A stretch of 64,000 nucleotides of DNA from a virus (lineage: Duplodnaviria > Caudoviricetes): positions 1 through 64,000 of the IMG/VR virus record IMGVR_UViG_3300030376_007431; one strand, given 5' to 3'. Within the stretch, counting starts at the first letter, position 1. The number at the start of each line of letters is the position of its first letter. The position numbers and the translations under genes were made by a program. Below are positions 10,293 through 61,005 of this stretch, one piece after another. The notes under the pieces were generated by a model that made no database searches, had not been told where the DNA came from, and worked only from the letters and a program-made list of their open reading frames with translations.

Positions 10293-10626
10293 ATTGGAAT
10301 CGACCAGTAATAAAGTTATTGATCGCATGTAGTAGTTGAACGAATGGCTACTTAAAAAATCGTTCATATTTTTTTAAGTGTAGAAGAGAATTTCGCACTA
10401 GCCGCTTAATGCGGCAGGGGTATCACAGCCCTGTAAACCAAATAGTGATGATGCAGATAATTCCGCTAGAGTATATATACTTGAATTAAATATATATGAT
10501 AACAATAATTTGTTTGACTCCGATAATTCGGATAGCCTAGTATGGTGGGCGATAATAATTATACTAAACATGTAGAAGTTAATAATAATATTATGTGGCA
10601 CGCGGGTTCAAATCCCGCCACCTCCA
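10285..10626 (+). ncRNA. ssrA: tmRNA (transfer-messenger RNA); tag (A)VEENFALAA; CCA not encoded
   Basis: 5' GGGGGTGAATTGGAATCGAC; 3' T-arm GCGGGTTCAAATCCCGC. Acceptor stem GGGGGTG/CACCTCC has the G3-U alanine determinant and discriminator A. Pseudoknot-1 stems AGTAG/CTACT and TGAACGA/TCGTTCA. Tag ORF 10380-10409. Confidence 0.95.
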
Positions 10627-10743
10627 CTCTTTTATTTTGTCCTGTCCGAACAACCCCGATCATGGTGTATGCAATGGCAAAATTTTTTTTCGTGTTTTTA
10701 TAAAACTTACACACTAAAATATATGGTATTGATCGGAGAAAAA

Positions 10744-11646: not shown

Positions 11647-12611
11647 TTTCCTTGGATATTTCAAAATGCTATGGCTTTGATAAACATAGGAGTGGTTGGG
11701 GATATTGTATAAATTCTCTTAGGCCGTTTCATTCTTATTCTGGAATACATGTTGATGGTTTTGTTGAGCATAATTTTTGCTGGCATATCGAAGACTACTT
11801 TTATGGCGGAGCAAAATCTCACATACCATATAAAAAACCTTGGATTGGTTTTGTGCATAACCCTCCCAATCCCCCCAACTGGTTTGATATGTACAACTCT
11901 CCATTAGCTATGTTTTCCAGAGAGGTCTTTCAGCAATCTTTGAAGTGCTGTGAAGCGATTATTGTCTTATCTGATTACCTGAAAAGATGGGTTGAAGAAA
12001 GGTGTAGTGTCCCCTGCATATCTGTTAAACATCCAACAGAAACAAATGTTCCTAAGTGGACTCCCGAAAACTACATAAACTGTGGTCGTCCTACATTGCT
12101 ACAGATAGGTTACTGGTTAAGAAAATTAGAGTCTATTGTAGATATTAAAGTTCCATATCCATTCATAAAAAAGTGGCTACCTAGCCATAAAGGTTATGCA
12201 GAAGACTTGCTTTCAGTCTATAATAGAACTAAGCTGGATTTTTTTGAAGGTAGATACAAATGGTCTGGCGTAGAATTGTTAGACTGGGTTTCCCATGAAG
12301 ATTATGATACAATGCTTTCTGGAATTGTATTTCTTGACTTATATGATAGCTCAGCAAACAATGCTGTTATCGAATGTATAGCTAGGAATACACCTCTATT
12401 AGTAAACAGGCATCCAGCAGTCATCGAGTATTGTGGAGAAGATTACCCACTTTATTTTGACGACTTAGACCACGCCTCTTCGATTCTCGTAGATACAGAT
12501 AGAATAATTTCAGCACACGAGTATTTTAAACGTATGGATAAGTCTTGGATAAAGGGCGACTACTTTGCTAATGACCTGATTTTAAAATTAGAAAGAATAA
12601 AAAATGGATGA
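11643..12611 (+). CDS. Putative GT-B-fold glycosyltransferase-like protein
   Basis: VFLDLYDSSANNAVIECIARNTPLLVNRHPAVIEY resembles the GT-B donor-binding segment. Confidence 0.55.
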   Translation: MISLDISKCYGFDKHRSGWGYCINSLRPFHSYSGIHVDGFVEHNFCWHIEDYFYGGAKSHIPYKKPWIGFVHNPPNPPNWFDMYNSPLAMFSREVFQQSLKCCEAIIVLSDYLKRWVEERCSVPCISVKHPTETNVPKWTPENYINCGRPTLLQIGYWLRKLESIVDIKVPYPFIKKWLPSHKGYAEDLLSVYNRTKLDFFEGRYKWSGVELLDWVSHEDYDTMLSGIVFLDLYDSSANNAVIECIARNTPLLVNRHPAVIEYCGEDYPLYFDDLDHASSILVDTDRIISAHEYFKRMDKSWIKGDYFANDLILKLERIKNG

Positions 12612-15129
12612 GAGACATTATTGCACAAGACCGTTTGAGTTTTTTGAGACTTATGACGATGGCTCTATTGGTTTTTGCTGTCCTTCTTGGTATAACAACT
12701 ATGAAATAGGAAACATAAATGATAACTCTGTTGAGGAAGTCTGGAATGGCGAAGCAGCACAGGAATTAAGGCGTTCTATTCTAGATGGATCTTTCAAATA
12801 TTGCGATGAAAAAGTATGCCCACATCTGTCAACAAAAACTCACTGTGTACAAACATTACACCAAATAGAAGTTGCAGGAGAAAAGGGTTGGGACTTAGTT
12901 GCGGATGATATAAAAAATGATAGGACAATATTGAATCACAGTCCTCTTCAGATTCAGTTTGGGTACGATAGATCATGTCAGTTGGCATGTCCATCTTGCA
13001 GGCTAGAAGTGATTATGGAGGGTGGAGCGAGAAGAGAATTCATCATTGGACTACAAGATAAGTTAAGAAAAGAAGCATTTAAGGACGCTAAAACTTTTAC
13101 AATCACAGGCTCTGGAGATCCTTTTGCCAGTCCGGTCTTTAGAGAATTGCTGATGACACTCAAGGAAGAAGAGGCTCCAAATTTAGAGTACATTCAGCTT
13201 TTAACTAATGGGCTTTTGCTTGATACGTATTGGGATAAAATATCAGACTTTGCAAGGGAAAAAATAAAGCACATCTCAATCTCTATAGATGCGGCATCAG
13301 AAGAGATGTATAAAAAAGTCAGAAAGGGAGGTGACTGGAATCGCCTATTAGAGAATTTAAGTTTTACGAAGAAGCTAAAAGATGAAGGACAAATAATATC
13401 ATTTAACACTAGTTTTGTTATACAAGACGAAAATGTTGAAGAGATGTTAGATTTTGTTGACTTATGTGCAGGTTACGATGTCACCCTTGTCCAATTTCAA
13501 ACATATGAACCAGACTTTCTAGACTTCACCGAAAACTTCTTGCCTATTTGGTATGAGAGGGCTGTGCAAGAAAAAACACATCCTAAACATGGAAAATTGA
13601 TTAACGCTTTACATCATCCAAATATAAAAGCTAGGTATTTAGACTACTTAAACTGGGAGACAGTCCACGAAGACTGGGAACATGGATATGCTACAAAAGT
13701 TATGGTTGGAGGTTTAAGCTCTGTTCTGCTTCACGGAGAAGATATATCTCAATTAGAAGCTAACTTGTTAAAGTATGGTTATAAAGATGTATATTATGAT
13801 GGCAAACTTCATATTATAGAAAACAAATACCTAGAAGCTTTTGAAGATACAGAAAGAGTAAAGTTTGGAGAGCTTGATCTGGTCTGGGATGGCTCTCAAA
13901 ATAAATGGCTAACTCATGGAGACTGGGAAAATAGACAAATTCTTCTTGGGTTATTTGAGGCTCCTGTTTTTAATGAAGAAAAAGAATATGAGCTGGACAA
14001 GATAAATATGGACGCTGGAAATAGTGACCTCCCAATAGTTGATACATCTAACCTATTTTGCAAACAGCCATTTGAAAATTTTGAAGTAGATGATAATGGA
14101 AACGTAAGAACATGTTGTGCTTATTGGATGAATCAAACAATAGGAAACATACATCATTCGCCTATAGAAGAAATACTTAACTCAGAAGAAGCTAAAAAAA
14201 TTAGAGCCTCAATTTTAGATGGAAGCTTTTCTTATTGTAATAAACAAACATGTGCTAGGCTACAAAGTAAAGGTACTTATGATGATCAGTCTGGACTTTT
14301 CTCAAAAGATAAAGTGACAGATTCTCGATATAGAAAAATTATAGATGAAGATATAGTAGAAGTGGAGCGAATCAAGCACGTTAACTTCTTATGGGATGAC
14401 TCCTGCAATTTAAAATGTCCAAGCTGTAGGATAAGCTCAATATTGCATACTTCCGGCAAGAAATATGATGATGCTGTTGAAATACAAAATAAGATAATGG
14501 ATTTTGTTTTGAACGAACAGCCTAAAGGCGAGACATCGTTAAATATTACTGGGTCTGGAGATGCTTTTGGCTCCAAGGTTTTTAGAGACTTCTTAATAAA
14601 CTTTGATGGAGAACAGCACCCAGAAATTCAGATCAATTTGCAGACAAACGGCGTGATGTTTACAGAAAAAATGTGGCGATCAATGCACAAATGTCATAAT
14701 AATATAGGAGAGGTTTTAGTCTCGATTGATGCTGGCACAAAAGAAACTTATGATATAGTTAGGGTTGGTGGTAATTGGGACTTGTTGATGAAAAATATTC
14801 AGATGCTATCCAATCTGCGACTTGAAGGAAAAATAAAAGTTACACTAACTCTAGACTTTGTAGTACAAAAACACAATTACAAAGAAATGTCGTTAGCTAT
14901 TGAGTTAGCCAACTCTTTAGAGGGTGTTGACAAAATGAAGTTTTCTCTTGTTACAGATTGGGGAACTTGGAAAAGAGATGTTTTTGAAGACCATGCCGTA
15001 TGGATGGAAAACAATCCGCTACATGAAGATTTTGTAAATTCATTTAACAATGAAATTTTTTCAGGTGACAAAGTAGACTTAGGAAATGTGTATCACTATT
15101 ATGAAATAGCAAGAGGTAAAAATGATTAA
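12604..15129 (+). CDS. Tandem-duplicated radical SAM protein (two SPASM/twitch + radical SAM modules)
   Basis: Two CX3CX2C motifs (SCQLACPSC, SCNLKCPSC), each preceded by C..PFE...G...CC..W...IGNI...R.SILDGSF.YC and followed by ITGSGD.F, TNG and SIDA. Confidence 0.88.
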   Translation: MDERHYCTRPFEFFETYDDGSIGFCCPSWYNNYEIGNINDNSVEEVWNGEAAQELRRSILDGSFKYCDEKVCPHLSTKTHCVQTLHQIEVAGEKGWDLVADDIKNDRTILNHSPLQIQFGYDRSCQLACPSCRLEVIMEGGARREFIIGLQDKLRKEAFKDAKTFTITGSGDPFASPVFRELLMTLKEEEAPNLEYIQLLTNGLLLDTYWDKISDFAREKIKHISISIDAASEEMYKKVRKGGDWNRLLENLSFTKKLKDEGQIISFNTSFVIQDENVEEMLDFVDLCAGYDVTLVQFQTYEPDFLDFTENFLPIWYERAVQEKTHPKHGKLINALHHPNIKARYLDYLNWETVHEDWEHGYATKVMVGGLSSVLLHGEDISQLEANLLKYGYKDVYYDGKLHIIENKYLEAFEDTERVKFGELDLVWDGSQNKWLTHGDWENRQILLGLFEAPVFNEEKEYELDKINMDAGNSDLPIVDTSNLFCKQPFENFEVDDNGNVRTCCAYWMNQTIGNIHHSPIEEILNSEEAKKIRASILDGSFSYCNKQTCARLQSKGTYDDQSGLFSKDKVTDSRYRKIIDEDIVEVERIKHVNFLWDDSCNLKCPSCRISSILHTSGKKYDDAVEIQNKIMDFVLNEQPKGETSLNITGSGDAFGSKVFRDFLINFDGEQHPEIQINLQTNGVMFTEKMWRSMHKCHNNIGEVLVSIDAGTKETYDIVRVGGNWDLLMKNIQMLSNLRLEGKIKVTLTLDFVVQKHNYKEMSLAIELANSLEGVDKMKFSLVTDWGTWKRDVFEDHAVWMENNPLHEDFVNSFNNEIFSGDKVDLGNVYHYYEIARGKND

Positions 15130-20011: not shown

Positions 20012-20018
20012 TAATTTT

Positions 20019-20055
20019 AGAGGGGGGAGACATTCTCCCCCTTCTATTTTTTTTT
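20019..20055 (+). terminator. Intrinsic terminator
   Basis: AGAGGGGGGAGA-CAT-TCTCCCCCTTCT followed by A and a T-run. Confidence 0.85.
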
Positions 20056-20846: not shown

Positions 20847-23294
20847 ATGAGCCAGAATATAAAAATCAAAAAGAGAAATGGTCGGTTAGAAGAAGTAAAT
20901 TTAGACAAAGTAAATAAGTGCGTAGAAAGAGCTTGTGAGAACTTAGAGGACGTATCTGTTAGTGAAGTGGTATTGGATGCAAGTCTACAGCTCTACAATA
21001 AAATTCCGACATCTGAAATAAATCAGGCTCTTATACTGTCGGCAAGATCAAAGATAGAAAAAGAACCCAACTATGCCTATGTAGCAGCTCGAATGTTACT
21101 AAACAATCTTTACAAAGAAGTGTTTGGAGAAGATGTAGGCAGTGAAAGTTTTGAAGAGCAGTACAAAAAGGCTTTTGTTAAAAATATTAAAAGGTTAGTG
21201 AAAGAAGAGCGACTGAGTGATAGACTTCTAAGCTATGATCTAGAATACTTAGCCGATAAAATGGTTCCCTCTAGAGACAAATTATTCAAATATTTGGGGA
21301 TTCAAACACTGTATGATAGATATTTCATACACCTAAATGAACAGAGAATGGAAACTCCGCAGGCTTTTTATATGCGAGTAGCTATGGGTTTGTGTCTAGC
21401 CGAAGAAAATATGGAAGACAAAGCTCTTGAAATATATAATATGATGTCCGAATTCAGGTACTCGCCATCAACACCGACCCTATTTAATAGCGGCACTCGC
21501 AGGTCGCAACTTTCTTCCTGCTATTTAAGCACTGTCGGTGATTCGCTTGATGGAATCTTTGGTACTCTTCATGGCCAATCTAGGCTTTCTAAATATGCGG
21601 GAGGCCTTGGAGTGGACTGGTCTGGAGTAAGAGCTACAGGCGGTTATATAAAGGGCACAAACGGCAAATCTACAGGGCTTGTGCCTTGGCTTAAGATATT
21701 CAATGACCTGCTTGTTGCAGTTAATCAAGGAGGGAAGAGAAAAGGTGCTGGGTGTGCATATATTGAACCTTGGCATCTAGACATTGAGGATTTCTTAGAT
21801 CTCAGGAAAAACACTGGCGATGATCGTCGCAGATGTCACGATATGAACACAGCGCTATGGATTCCAGACGATTTTATGTTAGCTGTTTCAAAGAACCAAG
21901 ATTGGTATTTATTTGATCCTTCTGAATGCCCAGAGCTACATGATACATACGGTAAAGAATTTACTAAAATGTATAAGAAATACAAAAAGGCTGCTGACAA
22001 TGGAGAATTAAAAAATTATACAATCATCAATTCTAAAGATTTGTGGAAAAAGATTCTCACAGCCCTATATGAAACTGGGCATCCTTGGATTACATTCAAA
22101 GACCCATCTAATATAAGATATTCTAATAAGCATGAAGGGGTAGTGCATTCATCTAACCTATGTACAGAGATCTTATTACATACAAAACCCACCGAGTATG
22201 ATGAAGGTGAGATTATCGAGGTTGGAGAGACTGCGGTGTGTAATTTAGCGAGTGTCAACTTGTCTTCACACCTTAAAGTCCGCACCATAGATTGGAAAAA
22301 GCTACAAAAAACTGTAGAGGTTGCCGTGAGAGGCTTGGATAATGTAATAAATTTAAATTTTTATCCAACTAAAGAGGCAAAGAAGGCAAACCTAAAACAT
22401 AGACCTGTTGGTCTTGGAATTATGGGCACTCATGATGTGCTACATAGACTAGGAATACCTTACAATTCTCAGGATGCAGTGGTATTGTGCGGGAAAATAC
22501 AAGAGTTTATCTCCCTGCATGCAATCAAAACTTCAGCATTATTAGCTAAAGAAAAGGGAGAATACCCCTCTTTTGAGGGTTCTCTTTGGAGTCAGGACAA
22601 ATTTCCAATAGATACTTATTGTGATTTGATGAATCAGAGACATACTCATAAGCCAGAAAATGTGTATAAGAGAGTGGACTTTGAGAGCTTTGAAGAAGAG
22701 TGGGATGAGGTTAGGGAATTAGTAAGAAGACATGGTATGCGTAATAGTAATGTCATGGCGATTGCTCCTACCGCAACTATTTCATATATTCAAGGCTGTT
22801 CGCAGTCTATTGAACCAGATTACTCAATTCTTTATGTTTATTCAACACTCAGTGGTGAGTTCACAATGGTCAACGAGCATTTTGTCTCAATGGCAAAGAA
22901 GAAAGGTATTTGGTGTCAAGAGTTAGTGGACGCTCTTAAAACTGCTGACGGAGACGTTATGGCAGTTGATTTAGATGAGGATATTCAAAGAGAGTTTATG
23001 ACGGCTTTTGATATTGAACCAGAAATTTTAATTAAGGCTGCGGCTGAAAGGCAGAAGTGGATTGACATGGGACAGTCACTGAACCTTTATAACAAACACG
23101 ACAGTCTTAAATTTTTAAATGACCTATATTTTTGTGCTTGGGAAAACGGTTTAAAAACTACATATTACCTAAGAGGCAAAGCCGCAACTCGGCTAGAAAA
23201 ATCAACTGTTAGTTTTAAATCAACCGAAGAACCGACAACAGAAGAAATTAAGGCCTGTTCTATTTTAGATCCCGGATGTGAGAGTTGTCAATGA
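20847..23294 (+). CDS. nrdA: Class I ribonucleotide reductase alpha subunit with N-terminal ATP cone
   Basis: IKKRNG ATP cone, PSTPTLFN, LSSCY, SNLCTEI, VCNLASVN, APTATIS, LKTTYYLR, C-terminal CESCQ. Confidence 0.97.
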   Translation: MSQNIKIKKRNGRLEEVNLDKVNKCVERACENLEDVSVSEVVLDASLQLYNKIPTSEINQALILSARSKIEKEPNYAYVAARMLLNNLYKEVFGEDVGSESFEEQYKKAFVKNIKRLVKEERLSDRLLSYDLEYLADKMVPSRDKLFKYLGIQTLYDRYFIHLNEQRMETPQAFYMRVAMGLCLAEENMEDKALEIYNMMSEFRYSPSTPTLFNSGTRRSQLSSCYLSTVGDSLDGIFGTLHGQSRLSKYAGGLGVDWSGVRATGGYIKGTNGKSTGLVPWLKIFNDLLVAVNQGGKRKGAGCAYIEPWHLDIEDFLDLRKNTGDDRRRCHDMNTALWIPDDFMLAVSKNQDWYLFDPSECPELHDTYGKEFTKMYKKYKKAADNGELKNYTIINSKDLWKKILTALYETGHPWITFKDPSNIRYSNKHEGVVHSSNLCTEILLHTKPTEYDEGEIIEVGETAVCNLASVNLSSHLKVRTIDWKKLQKTVEVAVRGLDNVINLNFYPTKEAKKANLKHRPVGLGIMGTHDVLHRLGIPYNSQDAVVLCGKIQEFISLHAIKTSALLAKEKGEYPSFEGSLWSQDKFPIDTYCDLMNQRHTHKPENVYKRVDFESFEEEWDEVRELVRRHGMRNSNVMAIAPTATISYIQGCSQSIEPDYSILYVYSTLSGEFTMVNEHFVSMAKKKGIWCQELVDALKTADGDVMAVDLDEDIQREFMTAFDIEPEILIKAAAERQKWIDMGQSLNLYNKHDSLKFLNDLYFCAWENGLKTTYYLRGKAATRLEKSTVSFKSTEEPTTEEIKACSILDPGCESCQ

Positions 23295-23428
23295 GATTTG
23301 TTGAGTTTAAACAGTCTGGAACATCGCCAGTAAAATATAGACTAGAAATTAATTCAGAAGAAGCCGAAAAAGTTAAGGACTTATTGCAGGAAATTATTGA
23401 GAGATTAAGTAAAAATGAAAAAAACTAA
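23291..23428 (+). CDS. 45-aa hypothetical protein between nrdA and nrdB (not in ORF track)
   Basis: ATGA overlap with the nrdA stop; MRFVEFKQSGTSPVKYRLEINSEEAEKVKDLLQEIIERLSKNEKN*. Confidence 0.55.
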   Translation: MRFVEFKQSGTSPVKYRLEINSEEAEKVKDLLQEIIERLSKNEKN

Positions 23429-24422
23429 GCAGATTATATCAGATAAAGTAGCGAGTGTAAATCAAATTCTTCCTCATGTAAATAAATGGGCTTGGGATTT
23501 ATTCATAGATGGTGCGGCTAATAACTGGATGCCAACCGAAATTTCTATGGCTAAGGATATAGAGCAGTGGAAATCCAACTCATTATCCGAAGATGAGAGA
23601 TTGGTAGTAAAGAGATGTCTAGGATTCTTTGCTGGCTCAGAGTCTTTGGTCGCCAATAACTTACTGCTTAGCGTGTTTAAGTTTGTAACAGATCCAGAAT
23701 GTCGCCAGTATATTCTACGTCAAGCATATGAAGAAAGCCTGCACAACTTAACGGTGGTATATATTTGCGACTCACTGAGTCTAGATATCGACGAAGTATA
23801 TCAAGCATATAATTCAGTCCCTAGCATTAAAGCTAAAGACGAGTTCTTGATGAATATTACTAGTGATATAAATCGTCCTGACTTCAACATAAACACATTG
23901 GAAGGCAAGAGAGAGTTTCTTCGTAATATCATAACATATTATATTATATGCGAGGGGATATTCTTCTTCTCTGGTTTTGCTATGCTATTATCCTTTAATA
24001 GGCAGAACAAGCTTCCGGGAATTGGTGAACAAATCCAATACACTCTTCGTGATGAGAGTATACATATTGATTTTGGGACTACACTTATCAATAGATTAAG
24101 AGAAGATAACCCTAAAATTTGGACAAAAGCTATGGAAAAAGAAACCATTGAGCATATTGATACAGCTATGGAGCTTGAATTAGCTTACGCTAGAGATGTG
24201 TTGCCGAATGGTATTCTAGGATTGAACGCAGATATGTTTATTGACTATGTTCAATTTATTGCGAACAGAAGGCTTACTAACTTAGGTCTGCCATCACCAT
24301 ATACGAATGCACAGAATCCATTCCCTTGGATGAGTGAAATAATAGATTTAGAGAAGTGTAAAAACTTTTTTGAGACGAGAGTTACAGAGTATTCAGTGGG
24401 TAATTTAGTGGACGATTTTTAA
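23415..24422 (+). CDS. nrdB: Ribonucleotide reductase beta subunit, class Ic (R2c)-type signature
   Basis: NNWMPTEI, FFAGSESLV (Glu ligand), EESLHNLTV (Val at the radical-Tyr site), EGIFFFSGF, RDESIH, NFFETRVTEY. Confidence 0.95.
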   Translation: MKKTKQIISDKVASVNQILPHVNKWAWDLFIDGAANNWMPTEISMAKDIEQWKSNSLSEDERLVVKRCLGFFAGSESLVANNLLLSVFKFVTDPECRQYILRQAYEESLHNLTVVYICDSLSLDIDEVYQAYNSVPSIKAKDEFLMNITSDINRPDFNINTLEGKREFLRNIITYYIICEGIFFFSGFAMLLSFNRQNKLPGIGEQIQYTLRDESIHIDFGTTLINRLREDNPKIWTKAMEKETIEHIDTAMELELAYARDVLPNGILGLNADMFIDYVQFIANRRLTNLGLPSPYTNAQNPFPWMSEIIDLEKCKNFFETRVTEYSVGNLVDDF

Positions 24423-24436
24423 TAAGGTTTTAAAAA

Positions 24437-25552
24437 ATGGCTAACAGAATATTTTATGCGTGTCAGGGTGTCTTTGTAGATGGCTCTGAGTTGAAAAACG
24501 TGCAGAGCGTTGGTGTAAATTATTCTGCTGAAGCTGAAGGAGTGTCTGATCAAGGCAGACAACAACAGTTTAGAAGTCTTTACGCAAAGCCTGAAGTTGA
24601 GATAACTATAGAAAGAAATCTAAATCATGGTTTCACTCCATTCTATGCCGCTACAACTCCTTCTACATATGTAGGCGGCTTTTTACTTGCCGATGGTAAT
24701 TTGGGGATGTGCGGCTGGGACGGTAGCTCGAATTTAAAAGAATACAAAGTCGAGCTTGTGTATATGGACGATCAGAGCACAAGCACTAGGGTTGCTAATA
24801 TCCAATACAAATATTGTTTAATTACCAATATATCTTATTCTTTTCAGGTTGGCGGCCCAGCTACAGAGTCTATAACACTCAAAACAAATAATCTAATCAG
24901 AGAGGGAACCGCGACAGTTCCGGTTACTGGAGGTACTGACGGTGGCACAAATATAAAAAGACAAGCTTATATTAAACCGGAAGGCGCAGGTACTAATTCT
25001 ACAGTTATTCCCACAGAGCTATCAAGTATAATCACTAAGGATACAGGTATTGGTAGCCATAACGGTCTTATTCAATCCATTGAGGCAAGCATGGATGTCT
25101 CTTATGAAGAGCTTTCAGATCAAGGAAACTGGAGAGGTGCTAATCAAACAACAAACCCCTCAGAGCAGAACAAATGGAAATATGTCACCGATGTGGATAT
25201 AGAGACCTCAATAACTGCCAATTTGACAAAATCAATTCAACAAGATATTTTAATGAAAGACACAAACTTTATGGCTGCATTTCCAAAGCCAGATAGAGAG
25301 ATTAAGCTGGCCTTTACCAATGGCGCCAGTAATTTCTTTGTATTAGATCTTGGTAAAAGAAACTATTTAACAAGCATAAGCTGGTCTGGAGGCGATACAG
25401 GAGGTGGCAACGTAACTGGTGCTTTTACATATAAGAATGATATGAAAGAATTTGTTCCATATGTCCACAGCGCTGTGTATAATATAGCGGCGCCAACAAT
25501 AGCCGTCACTAACCCAGATGGCTCAGAAACAACATTTAATGTATATTATTAA
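24437..25552 (+). CDS. Putative virion protein, tail-tube-like
   Basis: MANRIFYACQ...VQSVGVN...PEVEITIER; beta-rich, Gly/Thr-rich; resembles tail tube proteins of large environmental phages (recollection). Confidence 0.45.
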   Translation: MANRIFYACQGVFVDGSELKNVQSVGVNYSAEAEGVSDQGRQQQFRSLYAKPEVEITIERNLNHGFTPFYAATTPSTYVGGFLLADGNLGMCGWDGSSNLKEYKVELVYMDDQSTSTRVANIQYKYCLITNISYSFQVGGPATESITLKTNNLIREGTATVPVTGGTDGGTNIKRQAYIKPEGAGTNSTVIPTELSSIITKDTGIGSHNGLIQSIEASMDVSYEELSDQGNWRGANQTTNPSEQNKWKYVTDVDIETSITANLTKSIQQDILMKDTNFMAAFPKPDREIKLAFTNGASNFFVLDLGKRNYLTSISWSGGDTGGGNVTGAFTYKNDMKEFVPYVHSAVYNIAAPTIAVTNPDGSETTFNVYY

Positions 25553-25566
25553 TAAAGGAGAAAACC

Positions 25567-26820
25567 GTGTTAGACTTTATTTTTGATCGCAGGAACTTTT
25601 TAAGAGTAGGAAGTATTGGTGCTGGACTCAGTGCAGTAGGGTTATCTGACTATGCTTTGGCTCAGGAAACTCTGTCACACGAAGATAAAGCTGTTGTTTG
25701 GGTATGGCTTGGAGGAGGGCCAACTCAATTTGAGACATTTCATGCTCCTAATGACACGGTTCCAACTGAATGGCAGCCAATCAATGGCGCGATTCATGAT
25801 GCCAAAACTAATATTACGCTAGGAGCTGACTGGACTGAGTTAGCTAAACATACTAGCAAGATGAACGTAATCAATTCATTTAGCCATAGGGATTCTTCTC
25901 ATCGCCAAGGTACTCACTTCATGATGACTGGACACTATAATCCAGAGAGAACAACTACATCCATAACGAAGTACCCATCTTTTGGTTCTATAATCTCTGC
26001 CGTTTACGGGGCTAATCATCCTCAAAATGGAGTACCCACATATGTTAAACAAGGTAAAATCGAAGGTGATGAAGGTGCTTGGTTGGGCGGAGCATATAAA
26101 CCTTTCGATCCATCCAATAAAGACAACCTTACCCCAAGAGTTGAACTTAATAGATTCTCAACAAGAAAAGAATTGCTCAGAGGACTCGACGCCGCCAGAG
26201 TAGCTGGACAAAGCGCAGACTCTGTGGACTTTTATAAGGGTCAGGCATATGATGTAATTCTAGGCTCAGCCAAAGATGCTTTTTCTACAGATAAAGAAAC
26301 AGAAGCAACAAAAAAACTATACGGATCAGAGAAAGCCAACGATATCGGTGAACAATTAATGCTAGCTCGACGACTAGTAGAACATGGAACAAAATTTATA
26401 ACTTTACATTACGGTGGCTGGGATATGCACTCTAATATTTCTAACGCTTTGAAAGGCAAGGTTCCACCTATTGACAAGGCTCTAGCTGGATTTATGCAAG
26501 ATGTGTCTGATAAGGGTTTAAGTGATAAAGTATTATTAGTGGTCACTGGTGAATTTGGCAGAACTAAGATCAACGCCAATGCTGGTCGTGACCATTGGCC
26601 ATCAATCACACCAATGTTTATGTTTGGTGGGGATTACCAATCAGGCAGAACTATTGGAGAATCAGACAGATCATATAGTCCAATAGAGAACCCAGTTGGG
26701 CCATTGGATTTACAAGCAACACTATTTAATCATTTCGGAATAGATAAAGGCATTCAGCGTGTAGATAACGGCGGAAGGCCTAGATATTTACTGGAAGGCG
26801 AAGCAAAGGTAATATTATAA
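25567..26820 (+). CDS. DUF1501-family protein with Tat signal (copy 1)
   Basis: RRNFL...ALA signal; WLGGGPTQFETF, SHRQGTHFMMTG, LMLARRLVE, GGWDMH, GEFGRT, GRDHWP. Confidence 0.9.
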   Translation: MLDFIFDRRNFLRVGSIGAGLSAVGLSDYALAQETLSHEDKAVVWVWLGGGPTQFETFHAPNDTVPTEWQPINGAIHDAKTNITLGADWTELAKHTSKMNVINSFSHRDSSHRQGTHFMMTGHYNPERTTTSITKYPSFGSIISAVYGANHPQNGVPTYVKQGKIEGDEGAWLGGAYKPFDPSNKDNLTPRVELNRFSTRKELLRGLDAARVAGQSADSVDFYKGQAYDVILGSAKDAFSTDKETEATKKLYGSEKANDIGEQLMLARRLVEHGTKFITLHYGGWDMHSNISNALKGKVPPIDKALAGFMQDVSDKGLSDKVLLVVTGEFGRTKINANAGRDHWPSITPMFMFGGDYQSGRTIGESDRSYSPIENPVGPLDLQATLFNHFGIDKGIQRVDNGGRPRYLLEGEAKVIL

Positions 26821-27731
26821 TGAAAAAAGAAAACTATGCAAGTGCATTTAATGAATATTTAAACGAAACAGGTTACACCGAAGAGCTTACAGAGGAGAAT
26901 TTCTATGTGCCTGCGGAAGCGGAATATGTAGACTTTGGTGAAGATACTGAAGACTGGGATATTGCAGAGGCAAAACCCGGACTTTGGGAAAATATCCGCA
27001 AGAAGAAGGAAAGAGAAGGTAAAAATTATAGGCCTGCTCGCACTGAAAAAGAAGGTAGGCCGAGTCAAGAAGAATTAAAGAAAGCTAAGTCTGATAAGCC
27101 CTCCAAGGGCGATCCTCGAAGAACTCCTGCCCCCAAGAAAGACCAGAAGAAAGGATCTAAAAAGAACAAGCCAGACAGCGCGAAGAACCCAAGCGGCAAG
27201 ATTACTTTTAGCAAAGAGGTAACAAAGCAGTTATCAAATAAGGTTAAAGAACATAATGCTAAAGGCAAAGGTTCAAAGGCTAGTCTTGGGATGTTAAAAG
27301 CTGTATATAGAAGAGGTGCTGGCGCTTATTCTACAAGCCATGCACCAAAGATGAGTCGTCATGGTTGGGCTATTGCTAGAGTAAATGCTTTCCTGACATT
27401 GCTTAGAACTGGCAAGCCATCTAATTCTGCATATAAGCAAGATAATGATCTATTGCCAAAAGGTCATCCTAGAAAATCTAAAGCGGCAGAATATCAAGGT
27501 AGAAAAGTCACTTTGAACAAACCATTTAGAACTCCAGATGGGCCAAAGAAATTTGCGGTATATACTAAGAATGGATCTGGTAAGGTTGTCATTGTACGAT
27601 TTGGCGATCCAAATATGGAGATCAAAAGAGATAATCCAAAAAGAAGAAAAAGTTTTAGAGCAAGACATAAATGTGATACAGCTCCGGGCCCAAAGTGGAA
27701 AGCTCGGTACTGGTCTTGCAGAATGTGGTAA
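26820..27731 (+). CDS. Highly basic multi-module phage protein (possible DNA-condensing or head-associated)
   Basis: Concatenated short modules: GLWENIRKK; KAVYRRGAGAY...WAIARVNAFL; KVTLNKP...KKFAVY...FGDPNM...RRKSFRARHKC...ARYWSC. Confidence 0.6.
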   Translation: MKKENYASAFNEYLNETGYTEELTEENFYVPAEAEYVDFGEDTEDWDIAEAKPGLWENIRKKKEREGKNYRPARTEKEGRPSQEELKKAKSDKPSKGDPRRTPAPKKDQKKGSKKNKPDSAKNPSGKITFSKEVTKQLSNKVKEHNAKGKGSKASLGMLKAVYRRGAGAYSTSHAPKMSRHGWAIARVNAFLTLLRTGKPSNSAYKQDNDLLPKGHPRKSKAAEYQGRKVTLNKPFRTPDGPKKFAVYTKNGSGKVVIVRFGDPNMEIKRDNPKRRKSFRARHKCDTAPGPKWKARYWSCRMW

Positions 27732-27741
27732 AGGAAATTTT

Positions 27742-29040
27742 ATGAATTGTAAAGGTAATCGCAGATCTTTTCTGCATGTTGGTTTTTTGGGTGGGCTAGG
27801 CTTAACTTTATCGGATTACTTCCGAATGGAGAAGCTTCAGGCTGACCAGAAATTTTATGAAAGTATTGAAGGCCCAGCAAAGTCTGTTATTTATATTTAT
27901 TTGCCGGGAGGTTCAGCACATCAAGAGACATTTGATCCTAAACCTTTTGCTCCACTTGAGTACAGAGGGCCAATGTCTAGTATTGAAACAGTAGTTCCCG
28001 GAACTAGGCTTAACGAAATGATGGCTAAAACAGCCAAAGTCACAGACAAGATGACTATCATTCGCAGTATGACTCATGGAGAAGCAGCTCATGAACGAGG
28101 CACACATAATATGTTTACTGGTTATAGACCTAGCCCAGCCCTTCAATACCCATCAATGGGTTCAGTGGTGGCGCACGAGTTTGGCCCTCGCCAAAACCTT
28201 CCTCCATATGTCTGTATCCCAAACCAACCTAATGAATATGCAGGTACTGGATATTTAAGCAGCTCGTTTTCAGGCTTTAGTTTAGGCGCTGATCCAGCAA
28301 GTGATGGATTTCAGGTTCGAGATTTGAAACTACCTAACGGAGTCAATGATGGTAGATTTGGCAGTAGAAGAAAAATGCTTTCCGCAGTCAATGATTACTT
28401 TGCCACTAAAGAAAAGTCAGACTCTTTAGATGCTGTAGATAGTTTCTATGACAGAGCGTATAGTCTAATTAGCAGTGAAAAAGCTAGAGATGCTTTTGAT
28501 ATCAACAAAGAAAGCGATGCAATGCGAGATAAGTATGGTAGAAATACCGCTGGAGCCCGCATGCTTTTAGCTCGACGTTTAGTAGAAGCTGGAACACGTT
28601 TTGTCACGCTCACTTATGGTGGATGGGACATGCACAATAATATAGAAAATGGTATTCGTGGACAAGTACCCGCACTAGATCAAGGGCTTGCGGCTCTTAT
28701 TGAAGACCTTAGTGATAGAGGCATGCTAGACTCAACATTAGTTTGCTTAGCTTCTGAATTCGGTCGCACGCCTAAGATTAATGCAACCGCTGGGCGTGAC
28801 CACTGGCCAAAAGTGTTTAGTGTAGTTATGGCTGGAGGAGGAATACAAAGTGGAATGATTTACGGAAGCTCCAATGCTACAGCAAGTGAGCCAGAAGATA
28901 ATCCAATGACAGTAGAAGACTGGGCAGCTACTATCTATAATAGAATTGGTATTGTTGCTGACAAAGAGCTTATGGCTCCCGGCGATAGACCTATAGAAAT
29001 TGTAGACGGTGGCAAAGTTAGACAAGACTTAATTGTATAA
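27742..29040 (+). CDS. DUF1501-family protein with Tat signal (copy 2)
   Basis: True start probably ATG 27742 (MNCKGNRRSFL); AKSVIYIYLPGGSAHQETFDPKP, HERGTHNMFTG, LLARRLVEAG, GGWDMH, SEFGRTP, GRDHWP. Confidence 0.93.
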   Translation: MNCKGNRRSFLHVGFLGGLGLTLSDYFRMEKLQADQKFYESIEGPAKSVIYIYLPGGSAHQETFDPKPFAPLEYRGPMSSIETVVPGTRLNEMMAKTAKVTDKMTIIRSMTHGEAAHERGTHNMFTGYRPSPALQYPSMGSVVAHEFGPRQNLPPYVCIPNQPNEYAGTGYLSSSFSGFSLGADPASDGFQVRDLKLPNGVNDGRFGSRRKMLSAVNDYFATKEKSDSLDAVDSFYDRAYSLISSEKARDAFDINKESDAMRDKYGRNTAGARMLLARRLVEAGTRFVTLTYGGWDMHNNIENGIRGQVPALDQGLAALIEDLSDRGMLDSTLVCLASEFGRTPKINATAGRDHWPKVFSVVMAGGGIQSGMIYGSSNATASEPEDNPMTVEDWAATIYNRIGIVADKELMAPGDRPIEIVDGGKVRQDLIV

Positions 29041-29050
29041 GGGAAACAAA

Positions 29051-29263
29051 ATGCCTTTACCTAAAAGAAATAAAGATGAGGATGCTAAAAACTTTGTTAA
29101 TCGCTGCATGTCCAGTGATGTCATGAAGGAAGAATATCCTAGTCAACAACAGCGAGTTGCTGTATGTATCAGTCAATCACGAGCCGCTTCTACAGTAGAG
29201 GGTTTAGCCGCTGCTAGTGAAGAGCTTATTTACGAAAATATTAAAAAGGAGACACAACAATGA
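29051..29263 (+). CDS. Small conserved phage module (P.P...FVNRCM...EYP..QQRVAVC)
   Basis: Motif recalled from phage head-associated proteins; ATG 29051. Confidence 0.55.
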   Translation: MPLPKRNKDEDAKNFVNRCMSSDVMKEEYPSQQQRVAVCISQSRAASTVEGLAAASEELIYENIKKETQQ

Positions 29264-29454
29264 AATTTAAAGTACCGCTGATAGCAATTATGATAGTTGC
29301 GGCAATATGTTTCATCAACAAAGAGGAGATAAAAAATATGTTTAGTGGCGATCAACCAGTTATTTGTGAAATATGTGAACCAGAATGTCCATGTCCAGAA
29401 GCAGGTTGCATTTGCGACGTTAATATATGCAAATGTGAAAAGTGCGTTAGTTAA
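29260..29454 (+). CDS. Membrane-anchored or secreted Cys-rich (metallothionein-like) small protein
   Basis: N-terminal hydrophobic helix; 9 Cys in 27 residues at the C-terminus. Confidence 0.6.
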   Translation: MKFKVPLIAIMIVAAICFINKEEIKNMFSGDQPVICEICEPECPCPEAGCICDVNICKCEKCVS

Positions 29455-29539
29455 TTTCGATCTCGACCAAACGGCGAGAGCTAGCATCGAAATCAGTTTT
29501 GGGCGTTCGTTAAAAAGGAATTTATCGGGCGCTCAAACT
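29454..29539 (+). other. Intergenic double hairpin (terminator or candidate cis-regulatory RNA)
   Basis: ATTTCGAT...ATCGAAAT enclosing CTCG-ACC-AAAC-GG-CGAG; second stem AGTTTTGGGCGTTCG / CGGGCGCTCAAACT with G-U pairs. Confidence 0.45.
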
Positions 29540-29559
29540 TAACCAAAGGAGTTAATATA

Positions 29560-29997
29560 ATGAAATATTTAGTAACACTATTATGTTTATTGTTTGTGCC
29601 ATTATCTGCAAACGCAGATCGACCAGAGCGTAAGGTAATCAAACCTCCCCAAGTTGTCAGAAGCCAACCCAGAGAGTTTACAAGACCTCCTGCGGCAAAA
29701 CCCGTACAGAACAAACCTCTGCCAAAAGGATTCGGCGTACCGATTCAACGCCCACAAGGGTTTGGAAAACAGCAGTGGCAGAAACCACAGCCTCAACCTC
29801 AACAACCAAAAGTTCAGACTAAACATAGCTTTGGTTTTTATAATTACTATAGACCCGTGAACCCGCATTTTAGATATTATAGAGTTCCCTCTTATTATCC
29901 CCCTGTGATTATTCAGCCTCCTGTTGTTATTCAACCTCAGCCAATGCCGATTTATCCGGGCCCATTTCATGGTTTCTTTTTTCAATTTAGATTTTAA
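29560..29997 (+). CDS. Secreted Pro/Gln/Tyr-rich low-complexity protein
   Basis: AAAGGAG RBS; signal peptide ending SANA; QPQPQQP and YYRP..YYPP tracts; ends GFFFQFRF. Confidence 0.7.
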   Translation: MKYLVTLLCLLFVPLSANADRPERKVIKPPQVVRSQPREFTRPPAAKPVQNKPLPKGFGVPIQRPQGFGKQQWQKPQPQPQQPKVQTKHSFGFYNYYRPVNPHFRYYRVPSYYPPVIIQPPVVIQPQPMPIYPGPFHGFFFQFRF

Positions 29998-30006
29998 GGT
30001 AATACT

Positions 30007-30579
30007 ATGACAACACAATACGCAAGACCTGATAGTGACATATCTGTTGACTCTTTTGGAGCGTATGGCTGGTTCGCAAGCACTGGCTCCGATCTGTATG
30101 CAATGATAGATGAAGAAGTTGCAGACGATACCGACTATGCGAGATGCCGAGGAAGCAACGCTGAAAGTGGCTATAGATATTACAAGCTAGGTCTGAGCGA
30201 CATTGACGAACCTAGTGACAAGTCTACTTTAAGTATTCGGGTAAGAGTTAGTAATGTAGATGACGCTGGGGATTTACGACTGTATCAAGGCTCTAGTCTG
30301 ATTAAAAGGTTCAACGGTTCTGGCAATGGGTTTGGAACTGGCTCTAAAAGAAATCTTGACTTTGCAATTCCTGAAGCCGATGCAGAAAATATAACAGACT
30401 ATACGGATTTGAATCTTTGGATTGGTATAGATAATGATTCGTATGGTACTGCTTACATCTATCAGGTGTACTTGGAAGCCGGTAGTGCCAGTGGTGGCTC
30501 AACTAGAAAGCAAAATTTGTCTATTATATCTCCCTCTATGGGTATTCAGGGTTTAGGAAATGGTTTTACTTTAGCATAA
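30007..30579 (+). CDS. Beta-rich putative virion/fibre-associated protein
   Basis: YARPDSD...W...LY..IDE...DD.DY pattern and acidic Gly/Ser-rich composition. Confidence 0.4.
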   Translation: MTTQYARPDSDISVDSFGAYGWFASTGSDLYAMIDEEVADDTDYARCRGSNAESGYRYYKLGLSDIDEPSDKSTLSIRVRVSNVDDAGDLRLYQGSSLIKRFNGSGNGFGTGSKRNLDFAIPEADAENITDYTDLNLWIGIDNDSYGTAYIYQVYLEAGSASGGSTRKQNLSIISPSMGIQGLGNGFTLA

Positions 30580-30592
30580 GGACACACGTAAT

Positions 30593-31807
30593 ATGAAGAG
30601 ACGCAACTTTTTAGCTTCTGTAGCGAGCGTAATGTCGCTAGCAGAAACTGTCAAAGCGAATCAAGAAGAGTTGAAAAAAAATGGTAAATCCGCTATCCTG
30701 TTATGGATGGGCGGCGGCCCTTCAACGATGGACATCTGGGACTTAAAATCCGGCGCTCCAACAGGAGGCCCTTTCAGGCCTATAGCTACTAGCGGAGATG
30801 TTCAGATTAGTGAGCATATGCCTTTAATGGCTAAACAAATGCATAACGCCGCCATTATTAGAAGTATGAGTACTCGTGAAGCTGACCATATGCGTGGTCG
30901 TTATTATATGCACACCGGCTACGTTCCTAATCCATCTATTGACCACCCAAGCTATGGGTCTGTCCTATCCCATCAACTCCGACGAAAAGATTTGTCGATC
31001 CCCCAATTCATCTCAGTGGGAGGAGGAAGTATGGGCGCAGGTTTTCTGGGAGCTAAATACAATCCGTTCATGGTAAATAGTGATGGTAGAATTAGAAATC
31101 TAGATATGAAAGTAGATGAAAGATTTTATCAAAGAGCTTACGCTTTAGATGCAATTGAAAATAACTTTATAAACCAGAGAAGAGGATCATTAGCAAAAGA
31201 ACATCAGGCGATCCTTAAAGAGACATTTAATGTTCTAACGAGCGCCCAAATGGATGCGCTTAAAGTAGCTGGTGAACCTGACAATATAAAAGAAAGATAC
31301 GGAGACAATAACTTTGGTAAGGGGTGCTTGATGGCACGGCGTTTAGTCGAAGCAGGAGTACCATTTATTGAAGTTAATCTAGGTGGCTGGGATAATCACC
31401 AGAACATTTTCCCTACATTAAGAGATACGAAACTGCCCATGTTAGATCAAGGCATGAGCGCGCTGTATGAAGATTTAGAGCAGCGTGGGTTATTACAAGA
31501 CACAGCGATTATTTGGATGGGTGAGTTCAGTAGGACTCCTCGTATCAACGGTAATGCTGGTCGTGACCACTGGGCACGAAGCTGGAGTGTTGTCGTTGGC
31601 GGAGCCGGAATGAATGGCGGTATCGCTATTGGCGAAACAAACTCAGATGGTACTCGTGTGGAAACCGAACCATATACATCTCAGGATGTCATGGCTTCCG
31701 TTTGCAAAGCGCTTGGTATTTCTTTGGGTACTACGTTTACTAGCAACAGTGGTAGACCTATGAAAATCGCTAACTCTGGTAAGGTCATAACCGAACTGTT
31801 TGGTTAA
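30593..31807 (+). CDS. DUF1501-family protein with Tat signal (copy 3)
   Basis: MKRRNFL; ILLWMGGGPSTMDIWDLK, DHMRGRYYMHTG, CLMARRLVEAG, GGWDNH, GEFSRTP, GRDHWA. Confidence 0.92.
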   Translation: MKRRNFLASVASVMSLAETVKANQEELKKNGKSAILLWMGGGPSTMDIWDLKSGAPTGGPFRPIATSGDVQISEHMPLMAKQMHNAAIIRSMSTREADHMRGRYYMHTGYVPNPSIDHPSYGSVLSHQLRRKDLSIPQFISVGGGSMGAGFLGAKYNPFMVNSDGRIRNLDMKVDERFYQRAYALDAIENNFINQRRGSLAKEHQAILKETFNVLTSAQMDALKVAGEPDNIKERYGDNNFGKGCLMARRLVEAGVPFIEVNLGGWDNHQNIFPTLRDTKLPMLDQGMSALYEDLEQRGLLQDTAIIWMGEFSRTPRINGNAGRDHWARSWSVVVGGAGMNGGIAIGETNSDGTRVETEPYTSQDVMASVCKALGISLGTTFTSNSGRPMKIANSGKVITELFG

Positions 31808-31811
31808 TCTT

Positions 31812-32108
31812 ATGAAATTTTTTAGAAACGCAGTTTATGTGCTATTTTCTTTATCTTTACTGAATTTAGCGGGCTCTTTCTATATGTATAGACATATAAT
31901 GAATAGGAGCAATATAATAGAGGTTAAAATTCCTATGTCGGAAGACCTCAAGGATCTACCTTTGCATACAAGACTCAGAGATTCACAGATTATGCAAGCG
32001 ATCCTTATGACTCATCACCAACTCGGTATACATGAGCCCGGCTCTCAGCCGATGTGTCCAATGTGTCAAGATTCAGAAATTAAAACTATAACAGTAGAGA
32101 ATAATTAA
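31812..32108 (+). CDS. Membrane-anchored hypothetical protein
   Basis: N-terminal TM helix; C-terminal CPMC. Confidence 0.55.
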   Translation: MKFFRNAVYVLFSLSLLNLAGSFYMYRHIMNRSNIIEVKIPMSEDLKDLPLHTRLRDSQIMQAILMTHHQLGIHEPGSQPMCPMCQDSEIKTITVENN

Positions 32109-32806
32109 TGGCAAGACAACCAAAGAAGAAGCCCGCAACTAGACAACGCCGTAAAATACTTCGACCAAAGACTAGAAATCAAGAAGACTATATGGGTCAC
32201 ATTCATAAGTCTGACGTGACATTCTGTTCAGGGCCAGCAGGCTCAGGAAAGACCAGCGTATCTGTAGGAATGGCCTGTGAATACTTGATCGAGAAAAAGG
32301 TAGATAAAATCATTATCACTAGACCTGTCGTAGAATCCGGTAGAGGTTTAGGCCACCTTCCGGGAACACTAGTTGAAAAAATAAATCCGTATCTAATACC
32401 TATACTAGAAGAGATGAATCACTATCTCACTAGAAATACCGTTGAGACTTACAGAAATAGAAATATTATTGAGTTATGTCCTTTGGAATATATGCGAGGT
32501 AGAAACTTTCATAATTGCTTTATGATACTTGACGAGGCTCAGAATGCCACATTTGAGCAGATTAAAATGTTTATTACTAGAATTGGCAAGGATTCTAAAG
32601 CTGTAATAAATGGAGACTTAAGACAGTCCGATCTAGGTAAACAACAAGGAGGTTTGCATACCTGTATGGAAAAATTAGTTGAGGTCTCCGGTGTAGGAGT
32701 CTGCGAACTTGACTATAGCGATATTGTGCGAAGCGATATTGTCTCCAAGATTCTTATAAGACTAAACAAGAAAGAAGATGACGATGAACCAGTTAAATAT
32801 TTTTAG
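32108..32806 (+). CDS. phoH: PhoH-like ATPase
   Basis: GPAGSGKT, ITRPVVE..GHLPG, PLEYMRGR, ILDEAQN, INGDLRQSD, IVRS. Confidence 0.95.
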   Translation: MARQPKKKPATRQRRKILRPKTRNQEDYMGHIHKSDVTFCSGPAGSGKTSVSVGMACEYLIEKKVDKIIITRPVVESGRGLGHLPGTLVEKINPYLIPILEEMNHYLTRNTVETYRNRNIIELCPLEYMRGRNFHNCFMILDEAQNATFEQIKMFITRIGKDSKAVINGDLRQSDLGKQQGGLHTCMEKLVEVSGVGVCELDYSDIVRSDIVSKILIRLNKKEDDDEPVKYF

Positions 32807-46643: not shown

Positions 46644-46858
46644 TGGATGTTACAGCTGACTATAAGTCTGTCCTGTTTTCAGGATGCGCTATTGAATACA
46701 AAGATATTAGCCTATGCAATTTAGGCTCATATTTACCTTCAAGACTTGGTATGTCTCGAACATATCAGGTTCACTCAAAGAAACATAAGTTCAGTAAAAT
46801 ATACAAAAATGTTGATGATGCTGTCTGCATGTTTCTAGAACTAAAGAGGAGATCTTAA
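46643..46858 (+). CDS. Small hypothetical protein inside the split dnaE locus
   Basis: TAATG overlaps on both sides. Confidence 0.6.
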   Translation: MDVTADYKSVLFSGCAIEYKDISLCNLGSYLPSRLGMSRTYQVHSKKHKFSKIYKNVDDAVCMFLELKRRS

Positions 46859-53731: not shown

Positions 53732-53733
53732 TA

Positions 53734-54156
53734 ATGAGAATCATACTATCCAACACAGAGCCAAGTTTAAAAAACTATACTTGGATTAAAGACATTTCTT
53801 CTTTAGATGAAGTTGTTGATGACGCTGAAGCCACTGAGATTATAGTTGATAATTTTTTATCTTCTTTTAACTTCTCATTTGCTGGTGAGGCTCTCAAGAA
53901 AATACTATCTAAACTAAGAACTAGAGGGACTATTACAGTTTACGTTAAAGATATTTCTTTAATCTGCCATAATGTGGCGTCAGTTGCTTTAGATATATCT
54001 GATATAAACACACTATTCTTTGAGGATAGTCAGGCTATAGCTTCTGTTCTTAATTTGTCTAATGTAGACGATATTCTAACTCAGTGTGGATTAACAGTTA
54101 AAGAAAAACATCTAAATATTGAAACATGCCAAGGCATTATTGTAGCAGCGAGGTAA
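53734..54156 (+). CDS. Degenerate class I methyltransferase-like fragment
   Basis: ATEIIVDNFLSSF...ALKKILSKLRTRGTITV resembles the D.I...LEH...L.E..RVLKPGG motif, without motif I. Confidence 0.35.
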   Translation: MRIILSNTEPSLKNYTWIKDISSLDEVVDDAEATEIIVDNFLSSFNFSFAGEALKKILSKLRTRGTITVYVKDISLICHNVASVALDISDINTLFFEDSQAIASVLNLSNVDDILTQCGLTVKEKHLNIETCQGIIVAAR

Positions 54157-54160
54157 AACT

Positions 54161-60176: not shown

Positions 60177-60182
60177 ATTAAA

Positions 60183-61001: not shown

Positions 61002-61005
61002 CTAT

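Follow-up and report, generated by a model that had tools for sequence, protein, structure and literature searches.

What might a tailed phage gain from carrying, side by side, several members of a planctomycete gene family to which no function has been assigned? This question is raised by a block at positions 25567-31807 of the first 64,000 nucleotides (hereinafter the window) of the IMG/VR record IMGVR_UViG_3300030376_007431 (Caudoviricetes), which encodes three proteins of the DUF1501 (domain of unknown function 1501; PF07394) family, here termed A, B and C, separated by small genes of other kinds. Few gene families of Planctomycetes and Verrucomicrobia are as large as those of DUF1501 and its PSCyt/PSD partners, and no member has a known function. 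In cellular genomes, DUF1501 genes are joined with PSCyt1, PSCyt2 and PSD1 (DUF1549/DUF1553) in modules that have been described from Planctomycetes, Verrucomicrobia and Lentisphaerae (Kamneva et al. 2012, PMC3542564; He et al. 2017, 10.1101/150078). The evidence presented below supports the view that A, B and C are intact, exported-type and strongly selected auxiliary phage genes. As to their role, we lean, with somewhat better than even confidence, to the reading that they are auxiliary catalytic subunits, exported by the twin-arginine translocation (Tat) pathway, which dock on PSCyt2/PSD1 partners of a Pirellulaceae host, B and C having been captured from such hosts and A representing an older phage lineage.

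The three genes lie on the + strand and code for proteins of 417 (A; 25567-26820), 432 (B; 27742-29040) and 404 (C; 30593-31807) residues. They match the PF07394 profile with 222, 382 and 341 bits respectively, against a gathering cut-off of 27 bits, and each covers the 390-position profile from position 1-2 to 386-390, which confirms from end to end the recognition of three full-length paralogues in the initial annotation; at a pairwise identity of 29-36% they are also rightly called divergent. Neither NCBIfam (for A, B, C or D, a fourth paralogue found in relatives) nor PHROGs (for the DUF1501 genes) returned any match. For B we take 27742 (MNCKGNRRSFL) as the start rather than 27538, as the long open reading frame from the latter position would overlap the preceding gene. 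Upstream of each gene is a Shine-Dalgarno-like AAGGA, and each product opens with the twin-arginine motif that had been noted earlier (RRNFL in A and C, RRSFL in B) followed by a hydrophobic stretch, the Tat signal being called from these two features.

Examination of 103 phage orthologues (38 of A, 40 of B and 25 of C) revealed that the two arginines are invariant in all of them, as are the motifs H...TG, GGWDxH, EF.RT and GRDHW. Moreover, G56, G57, D296, H298, R342 and H354 are invariant in a 128-sequence alignment of the family and are present in A, B and C. The set of conserved motifs originally listed thus stands in all but one point: the N-terminal motif ends in aspartate in B and C but in histidine in A (GGPTQFETFH), a clade-specific feature that is invariant in its 38 orthologues. 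Nei-Gojobori pairwise dN/dS among the phage orthologues is 0.048 for A, 0.039 for B, 0.034 for C and 0.036 for D, indicating purifying selection; neither relaxed selection nor loss of the putative ligands is seen.

The close likeness of B and C to planctomycete genes might suggest that the block is a piece of host DNA attached to a phage contig by misassembly or mis-binning, a concern also raised in the initial annotation. The compositional evidence speaks to the contrary: the GC content at third codon positions of A, B and C (0.29-0.38) is that of the surrounding phage genes, while that of the host orthologues is 0.44-0.51, and their relative synonymous codon usage correlates at 0.64-0.84 with phage core genes as against 0.01-0.25 with host genes. 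The genes are tightly packed on one strand and overlap neighboring phage genes, and dozens of viral contigs, drawn from many samples, have them in the same order. Among 54 related IMG/VR loci, found as relatives with B, 27 have A, B and C clustered amid the same neighbors, and 19 have the fourth paralogue, D, between B and C. D is absent from the window and is exemplified by L004:10499-11782 (PF07394, 281 bits), with 18 other related loci carrying it too. The host loci, in contrast, have one such gene each, amid entirely different neighbors. Finally, more than half of the sampled words of the 6.2-kb stretch were found in runs of four further studies, and contigs from two of these cover a 10.5-kb region, with zero-mismatch pieces bridging the gene junctions. 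We estimate the probability of misassembly to be negligible and, in practice, dismiss it.

A scan started from a distant A-like protein added 59 further viral contigs of the same broad phage group, each with an A-like gene; they share UvsX at 37-42% identity, many have a DUF5824 neighbor as in the window, and several also carry C. A scan with P0303 found no relative. The cassette marks a widespread family of large marine phages and ties them to Planctomycetes.

To what extent were these genes acquired from a host? B shares 85-86% identity with genes from metagenome-assembled genomes (MAGs) of marine Pirellulaceae and 70-78% with those of other Planctomycetia, C is 78-80% identical to a different paralogue in the same four marine Pirellulaceae genomes, and D is 58-59% identical to a third paralogue of these. 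The four candidate host genomes have 77-139 DUF1501 matches each. As B, C and D are each far closer to their own host gene than to the phage paralogues, they represent independent captures and not duplications. This settles the alternative posed in the initial annotation in favor of B and C, and D in the relatives, having been taken up separately from distinct host paralogues; its statement that the phage keeps several subfamilies is likewise supported. Of 41 genomes of the Pirellulaceae, the family of the best host genome, 35 were found to have an orthologue of B, nearly always in single copy, as were 10 of 61 genomes drawn evenly across the phylum; by this distribution it is a core gene of Pirellulaceae and not of all Planctomycetota. 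In an IQ-TREE phylogeny the phage B proteins and the marine Pirellulaceae copies form one clade (SH-aLRT support 99) nested among planctomycete orthologues. Monophyly of phage B is not rejected (approximately unbiased, AU, test p 0.75), and host B may be sister to the phage clade or lie within it (SH-aLRT 88; AU p 0.75), with later exchange conceivable in either direction. A FastTree overview places the host C copy among the phage C copies. At least B and C were taken from marine Pirellulaceae. In three related loci (L039, L040 and L046) the C copy is only 47-49% identical to that of the window and groups in the tree with the orthologue of Gimesia (Planctomycetaceae), not with those of Pirellulaceae; it may have been acquired independently by phages that infect another planctomycete.

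The history of A is different. Its best match in five planctomycete genomes is only 36-38% identical, and its 120 nearest database proteins (59-95% identity), along with 20 deeper clusters, are all on contigs of at most 182 kb, with none of these proteins or clusters bearing a planctomycete label. In the tree A falls within a clade of some 72-88 representatives, approximately 410 residues long, that is distinct from those of B, C and D and from the host genes. A belongs to an older lineage of DUF1501, which to date is known from phage-sized contigs only and is represented on more than 100 viral contigs. Cellular origin, phage residence and purifying selection, by which a phage auxiliary gene is recognized, are all found in B and C; for A, phage residence and purifying selection are seen, and no cellular donor was found. 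A 152,655-bp contig with a GC content of 0.41 (L136; VFHP01000007.1), filed in a MAG of a 'SAR202 cluster bacterium', carries UvsX and the A-B-C cassette, and because of these is taken to be a mis-binned phage of the same group. A-like proteins labeled 'Pacearchaeota archaeon' and 'Nitrososphaerales archaeon' are on contigs of 10 kb and 38 kb, which may be mis-binned likewise.

From these affinities the host is most likely a marine planctomycete of the Pirellulaceae. The phage also encodes a transfer-messenger RNA (tmRNA), detected by ARAGORN at 10285-10627 (+), with the tag VEENFALAA; the tags of the four candidate host genomes are ADNNLALAA, AEDNLALAA or AENNLALAA, and that of Gimesia is ANKQFSMAA. 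The phage and candidate-host tags are alike in length and ending without being identical, a resemblance that is not diagnostic.

To better understand what the captured genes might do we examined the contexts of their host counterparts. The host orthologue of B, in Pirellulaceae and Gimesia, heads a four-gene module, in which it is followed by genes for a PPC-domain protein, for a Big_2-PSCyt2-PSD1 protein and for one with PSCyt1 and WD40; Kamneva et al. 2012 (PMC3542564) described this module as the 'most complex' of the conserved clusters. The host orthologue of C directly follows a gene for a 582-residue PSCyt2-PSD1 protein, which is well conserved and has an invariant CxxCH. No such partner had been seen in the initial annotation, and this holds for the entire 85.6-kb record, in which neither PF07583 nor PF07587 (PSCyt2 and PSD1) is matched at E <=1. 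PF07587 was likewise not found in five relatives, all of which carry 2-4 clustered DUF1501 genes and three of which, at 166.8, 145 and 180 kb, are rated 100, 94 and 100% complete. The phage thus has the DUF1501 component without the genes that accompany it in the host.

Co-folding of the 582-residue host PSCyt2-PSD1 protein with phage C gave a score of 0.77, compared to 0.00 for the best control; the score mark used is reached by 58 of 80 solved complexes and by 2 of 110 mismatched pairs, counts that are approximate here because custom alignments served as input. At least 71% of contacts are shared between runs, and the pLDDT (predicted local distance difference test) of the partner is at least 84. 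The predicted interface is formed by the C-terminal part of PSD1 (residues 409-582) and a helical insert of C (residues 137-215). As a prediction, the model supports binding of phage C to the host PSCyt2-PSD1 protein.

A predicted fold and the conservation patterns bear on the probable chemistry. The AlphaFold2 model of B (pLDDT 91.6), when compared with known structures using VIA-align, matches the nucleotide pyrophosphatase/phosphodiesterase (NPP) of snake venom (5gz5_A; Z 20.4, rmsd 3.1, 247 residues aligned), the Xac NPP (7n1s_A; Z 20.0, rmsd 3.2, 245 aligned), the PafA phosphatase (5too; Z 19.8, rmsd 4.3, 273 aligned) and steroid sulfatase (1p49; Z 18.1, rmsd 3.4, 249 aligned). With Z-scores of 18-20, the likeness to the alkaline phosphatase/sulfatase superfamily that had been proposed from motifs is borne out by the predicted fold. 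As in other members of this superfamily (NPP/ENPP, PafA-type phosphatases and S1 sulfatases), the core fold is accompanied by DxH and DH at positions typical of metal ligands. Unlike them, DUF1501 has GG in place of the aspartate that ends strand 1, EFGRT in place of GDHG and an extra GRDHW loop, and it has no formylglycine motif, [CS]xPxR being absent from A, B, C and the 103 phage orthologues. The second of these differences emerges from a profile-versus-PDB search, in which the sulfatase 'ifGDHGRa' aligns with the DUF1501 'tgEFGRT', in a weak match with an E-value of 0.05. To judge by motif spacing, one of the conserved histidines may occupy the position of the NPP threonine nucleophile. 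In sequence searches there was no Pfam match to Sulfatase (PF00884), Phosphodiest (PF01663) or PF00245 at E <=0.01, and phmmer and a family profile run against the PDB sequences gave only marginal matches to sulfatases and LtaS, at E-values of 0.05 or worse. Judging by the conserved DxH, E and DH residues, the metal site may have been remodelled, and A, B and C are not canonical members of the NPP, PafA-type or sulfatase families. Sulfatase chemistry, on which the initial annotation had partly drawn, is not supported, there being no formylglycine motif and EFGRT standing in place of GDHG, and its suggestions of phosphate or sulfated-glycan scavenging, exclusion and lysis are conjecture; its broader proposal that the phage proteins plug into a periplasmic system of the host is the best-supported reading, given the PSCyt2/PSD1 modules around host B and C and the co-fold that passed its controls.

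On this favored reading, in which the DUF1501 proteins act as docking catalytic subunits, a large lytic-type marine phage would make each of them in the infected cell, where they would fold in the cytoplasm, probably with metal. The host Tat pathway would then export each folded protein, and in the periplasm its helical insert would dock on the C-terminal PSD1 part of a host PSCyt2/PSD1 haem-motif protein. In this way the phage might supplement or replace the catalytic subunit of host systems for which it has no partner genes of its own, to its presumed benefit. Several points weigh against this. For no DUF1501 protein has any experiment demonstrated export, binding or activity. A has no cellular orthologue and hence no identifiable host partner, and the phages with only an A-like gene indicate that at least the A lineage may work alone. 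The predicted interface falls within the most variable region of C and shows no special conservation, phage and host C being identical at 27 of its 40 residues versus 279 of 339 elsewhere. The link to the host itself rests on gene similarity and a loosely similar tmRNA tag.

A different explanation is that these proteins are stand-alone periplasmic phospho- or sulfo-esterases, independent of any host partner, which would supply phage DNA synthesis with phosphate or sulfur scavenged from dissolved organic matter. Its attraction lies in a fold of the alkaline phosphatase superfamily closest to the NPP and PafA phosphatases, in the Tat export that is common to the PhoD and PhoX phosphatases, in the position of the cassette between ribonucleotide reductase and PhoH genes, and in the A-type genes, which have no cellular partner context and in some relatives are the only ones of their kind. 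The sulfo-esterase version is hard to reconcile with the formylglycine motif being found in 0 of 103 phage orthologues and with EFGRT being aligned to the GDHG metal motif of sulfatases, and no Pfam match to Phosphodiest or Sulfatase at E <=0.01 speaks for either version. B and C, moreover, are 78-86% identical to host genes that stand in PSCyt2/PSD1 modules, the co-fold passed its controls, and an independent esterase would leave the need for three or four subfamilies unexplained. We regard it as unlikely. A bolder scheme, for which we see a slightly smaller chance still, has the phage build a periplasmic metalloenzyme system of its own: A would be its core enzyme, B, C and D would direct it to several host PSCyt2/PSD1 haem-protein scaffolds at once, or take these over, the Cys/His-rich membrane peptides of the cassette would be metal-delivery or anchoring factors, and a redox-linked polymer-processing network of Planctomycetes would be rewired in infection as a result.

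The same small proteins enter into the proposal that the enzymes, together with the Cys/His-rich peptides and a Pro-rich protein, alter surface or periplasmic polymers, with superinfection block, receptor masking or lysis preparation as the effect. Such envelope remodelling would accord with the conservation of the cassette together with membrane-anchored and secreted small proteins, with the large glycan-building island of the same phage, which includes a sulfotransferase, and with the presence of rIIA and rIIB; yet no lysis or exclusion family was matched in Pfam, PHROGs or NCBIfam, and B and C so nearly match host genes of wide conservation that a function belonging to the host is more likely than a new one specific to the phage. 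We consider remodelling distinctly improbable. Docking could, in principle, also serve a decoy that binds the host PSCyt2/PSD1 proteins to shut down or divert the host system: the phage has no partner genes, the docking prediction holds against its controls and the interface region evolves faster than the core. A pure binder would, however, need neither the invariance of all putative active-site residues nor a protein-wide dN/dS of 0.03-0.05, and we assign this option only a slim probability. Taken together, stand-alone esterases, envelope remodelling and decoys retain real weight as rivals.

Compared with the host modules, the phage B and C proteins are 78-86% identical to their cellular counterparts and have the same Tat motif, conserved motifs and length. 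The phage differs in having DUF1501 only, with three or four subfamilies side by side, in being without a PSCyt/PSD1, PPC or WD40 partner, and in possessing the A lineage, of which the search of cellular genomes gave no instance. The nearest analogy for docking subunits might be offered by cyanophage psbA and psbD, host-derived photosystem subunits that work inside a host complex (PsbA in photosystem II). In both cases host-like genes are under strong purifying selection in many related phages, code for one subunit of a multi-protein host system and have phage and host sequences intermixed in the tree. In contrast to the DUF1501 case, it is known for psbA which complex it joins, which reaction it serves and how the phage benefits, and the DUF1501 phages carry several paralogous subunits at once. 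No paper on DUF1501 in phages was found in the literature searched. The few subunits that such a phage keeps, two to four in number, strongly selected and unaccompanied by partners, indicate which host modules are most important in infection. Phage subunits and host partners constitute natural hybrid pairs for tests of binding and activity, for which the predicted contact between the PSD1 C-terminus and the DUF1501 helical insert is a specific target, and the cassette as a whole provides a compact handle on one of the largest unexplained gene families of Planctomycetes.

What, then, surrounds and separates the three genes? All the features of the region are on the + strand, and the genes of the cassette block abut or overlap. 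On the 5' side are genes for the large (20847-23294; Pfam Ribonuc_red_lgC, 606 bits) and small (23415-24422; Ribonuc_red_sm, 267 bits) subunits of ribonucleotide reductase, a flank also present in relatives, and on the 3' side is a gene for a PhoH-like ATPase (32108-32806; PF02562, 232 bits). A strong terminator-like hairpin of 13 pairs followed by a T run is found at 20018-20046 (+), ahead of the nrdA promoter region. Because no comparably strong intrinsic terminator was seen between this hairpin and phoH, the ribonucleotide reductase genes, the DUF1501 cassette and phoH may form one transcription unit. Contigs from two oligo-dT marine RNA libraries align with A, with the DUF5824 gene and with B (90-99% likeness); other parts have no cover, DNA carry-over is possible and such contigs cannot show transcription, and accordingly we draw no conclusion from them.

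The initial annotation described the DUF1501 genes as interleaved with virion-type genes. This is for the most part unsupported: for the five intervening genes no capsid, tail or fibre family was matched in Pfam, PHROGs or NCBIfam. The gene between A and B (26820-27731) encodes a basic protein of 303 residues, 23% of them lysine or arginine, that accompanies the cassette in many relatives. It had been called head-like, and matches only DUF5824 (PF19141; 32 bits), DUF5754 (weakly) and PHROGs of unknown function (PHROG 7595). The supposedly fibre-like protein of 190 residues (30007-30579) resembles no family of known function: it gave no Pfam, PHROG or NCBIfam match, was not found in related loci at >=50% coverage, and in the ESM Atlas finds unnamed viral clusters only. 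The sole tail-like candidate is outside the block, immediately upstream of A, where a gene for a 371-residue protein (24437-25552) keeps its position in relatives at 32-93% identity. Its product may be tail-tube-like, a lead provided by a weak match to PHROG 238, 'major tail protein' (E 5.5e-4), and by ESM Atlas features of 0.96-0.97 with TM-scores of 0.69-0.76 against phage tail-tube clusters; its AlphaFold2 model (pLDDT 46) is too poor for testing this likeness.

The Cys-rich and Pro-rich products of the earlier description look to be small membrane-anchored or secreted-type proteins whose genes are kept along with the cassette; three small proteins, of 64, 102 and 145 residues, accompany it in 26-31 related loci. 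The first (29260-29454) is a membrane-anchored Cys-rich peptide with 10 cysteines and an N-terminal hydrophobic segment (hydropathy 2.62), whose cysteine pattern is conserved in 31 loci, where it follows B. The second (31800-32108; 29 related loci) overlaps the end of C and is membrane-anchored, with a His/Cys motif, LMTHH..G.H.PG.Q..CP.C, that is kept down to 44% identity; in most relatives that have the gene it likewise follows C, and it shows no similarity to the gene after host C. The third (29560-29997) is a secreted-type protein with 19% proline, a signal-like N-terminus and a conserved aromatic C-terminus (FFFQFRF/W). It occurs in 26 related loci; in relatives it is positioned after paralogue D, and it is retained in the window although D is absent. 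Directly after B, and overlapping its end, is a gene for a small conserved phage protein of 76 residues (29033-29263) with the motif RCM...EYP..QQR.AVC, which tblastn recovers in 30 related viral loci and which gave no credible family match in Pfam, PHROGs or NCBIfam. This gene is missing in several related viral loci, and in a related-strain contig from an RNA library 246 bases over it (window 29028-29275) are swapped for 47 other letters.

The IMG/VR record is linear, with a CheckV completeness of 55%; the complete relatives of the phage are of 145-180 kb. Coding is nearly all on the + strand and includes rIIA, rIIB, a UvsX-like recombinase, a DnaB-like helicase, a primase, class I ribonucleotide reductase, PhoH and many glycosyltransferases. 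Neither a related phage nor one with a DUF1501 gene was found among 50,697 GenBank phage records: megablast with 20 kb of the window gave no match, and tblastn gave none for A and one weak partial match for B. PHROG searches identified no virion gene in the record. Beyond the window, at 72580-84568 of the genome, are three very large open reading frames on the minus strand (1424, 1155 and 1429 residues) that have no PHROG match and may code for structural or fibre proteins of a new kind. The record is that of a large tailed phage whose polymerase is not T4-like. A DnaE-type DNA polymerase III alpha is encoded in two pieces, one with the PHP and polymerase regions (45072-46643, +) and one with the finger and HHH regions (47510-49090, +), between which is a gene for an RNase T-like exonuclease (46858-47547, +). 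Downstream of these is a run of glycosyltransferase genes (49928-52707 and others) with a sulfotransferase (62650-63225; PF03567), all within 49928-63225 (+). Among further glycosyltransferase genes, at 12604-15129 (+), is a gene for an 841-residue protein with two radical-SAM and two SPASM stretches.

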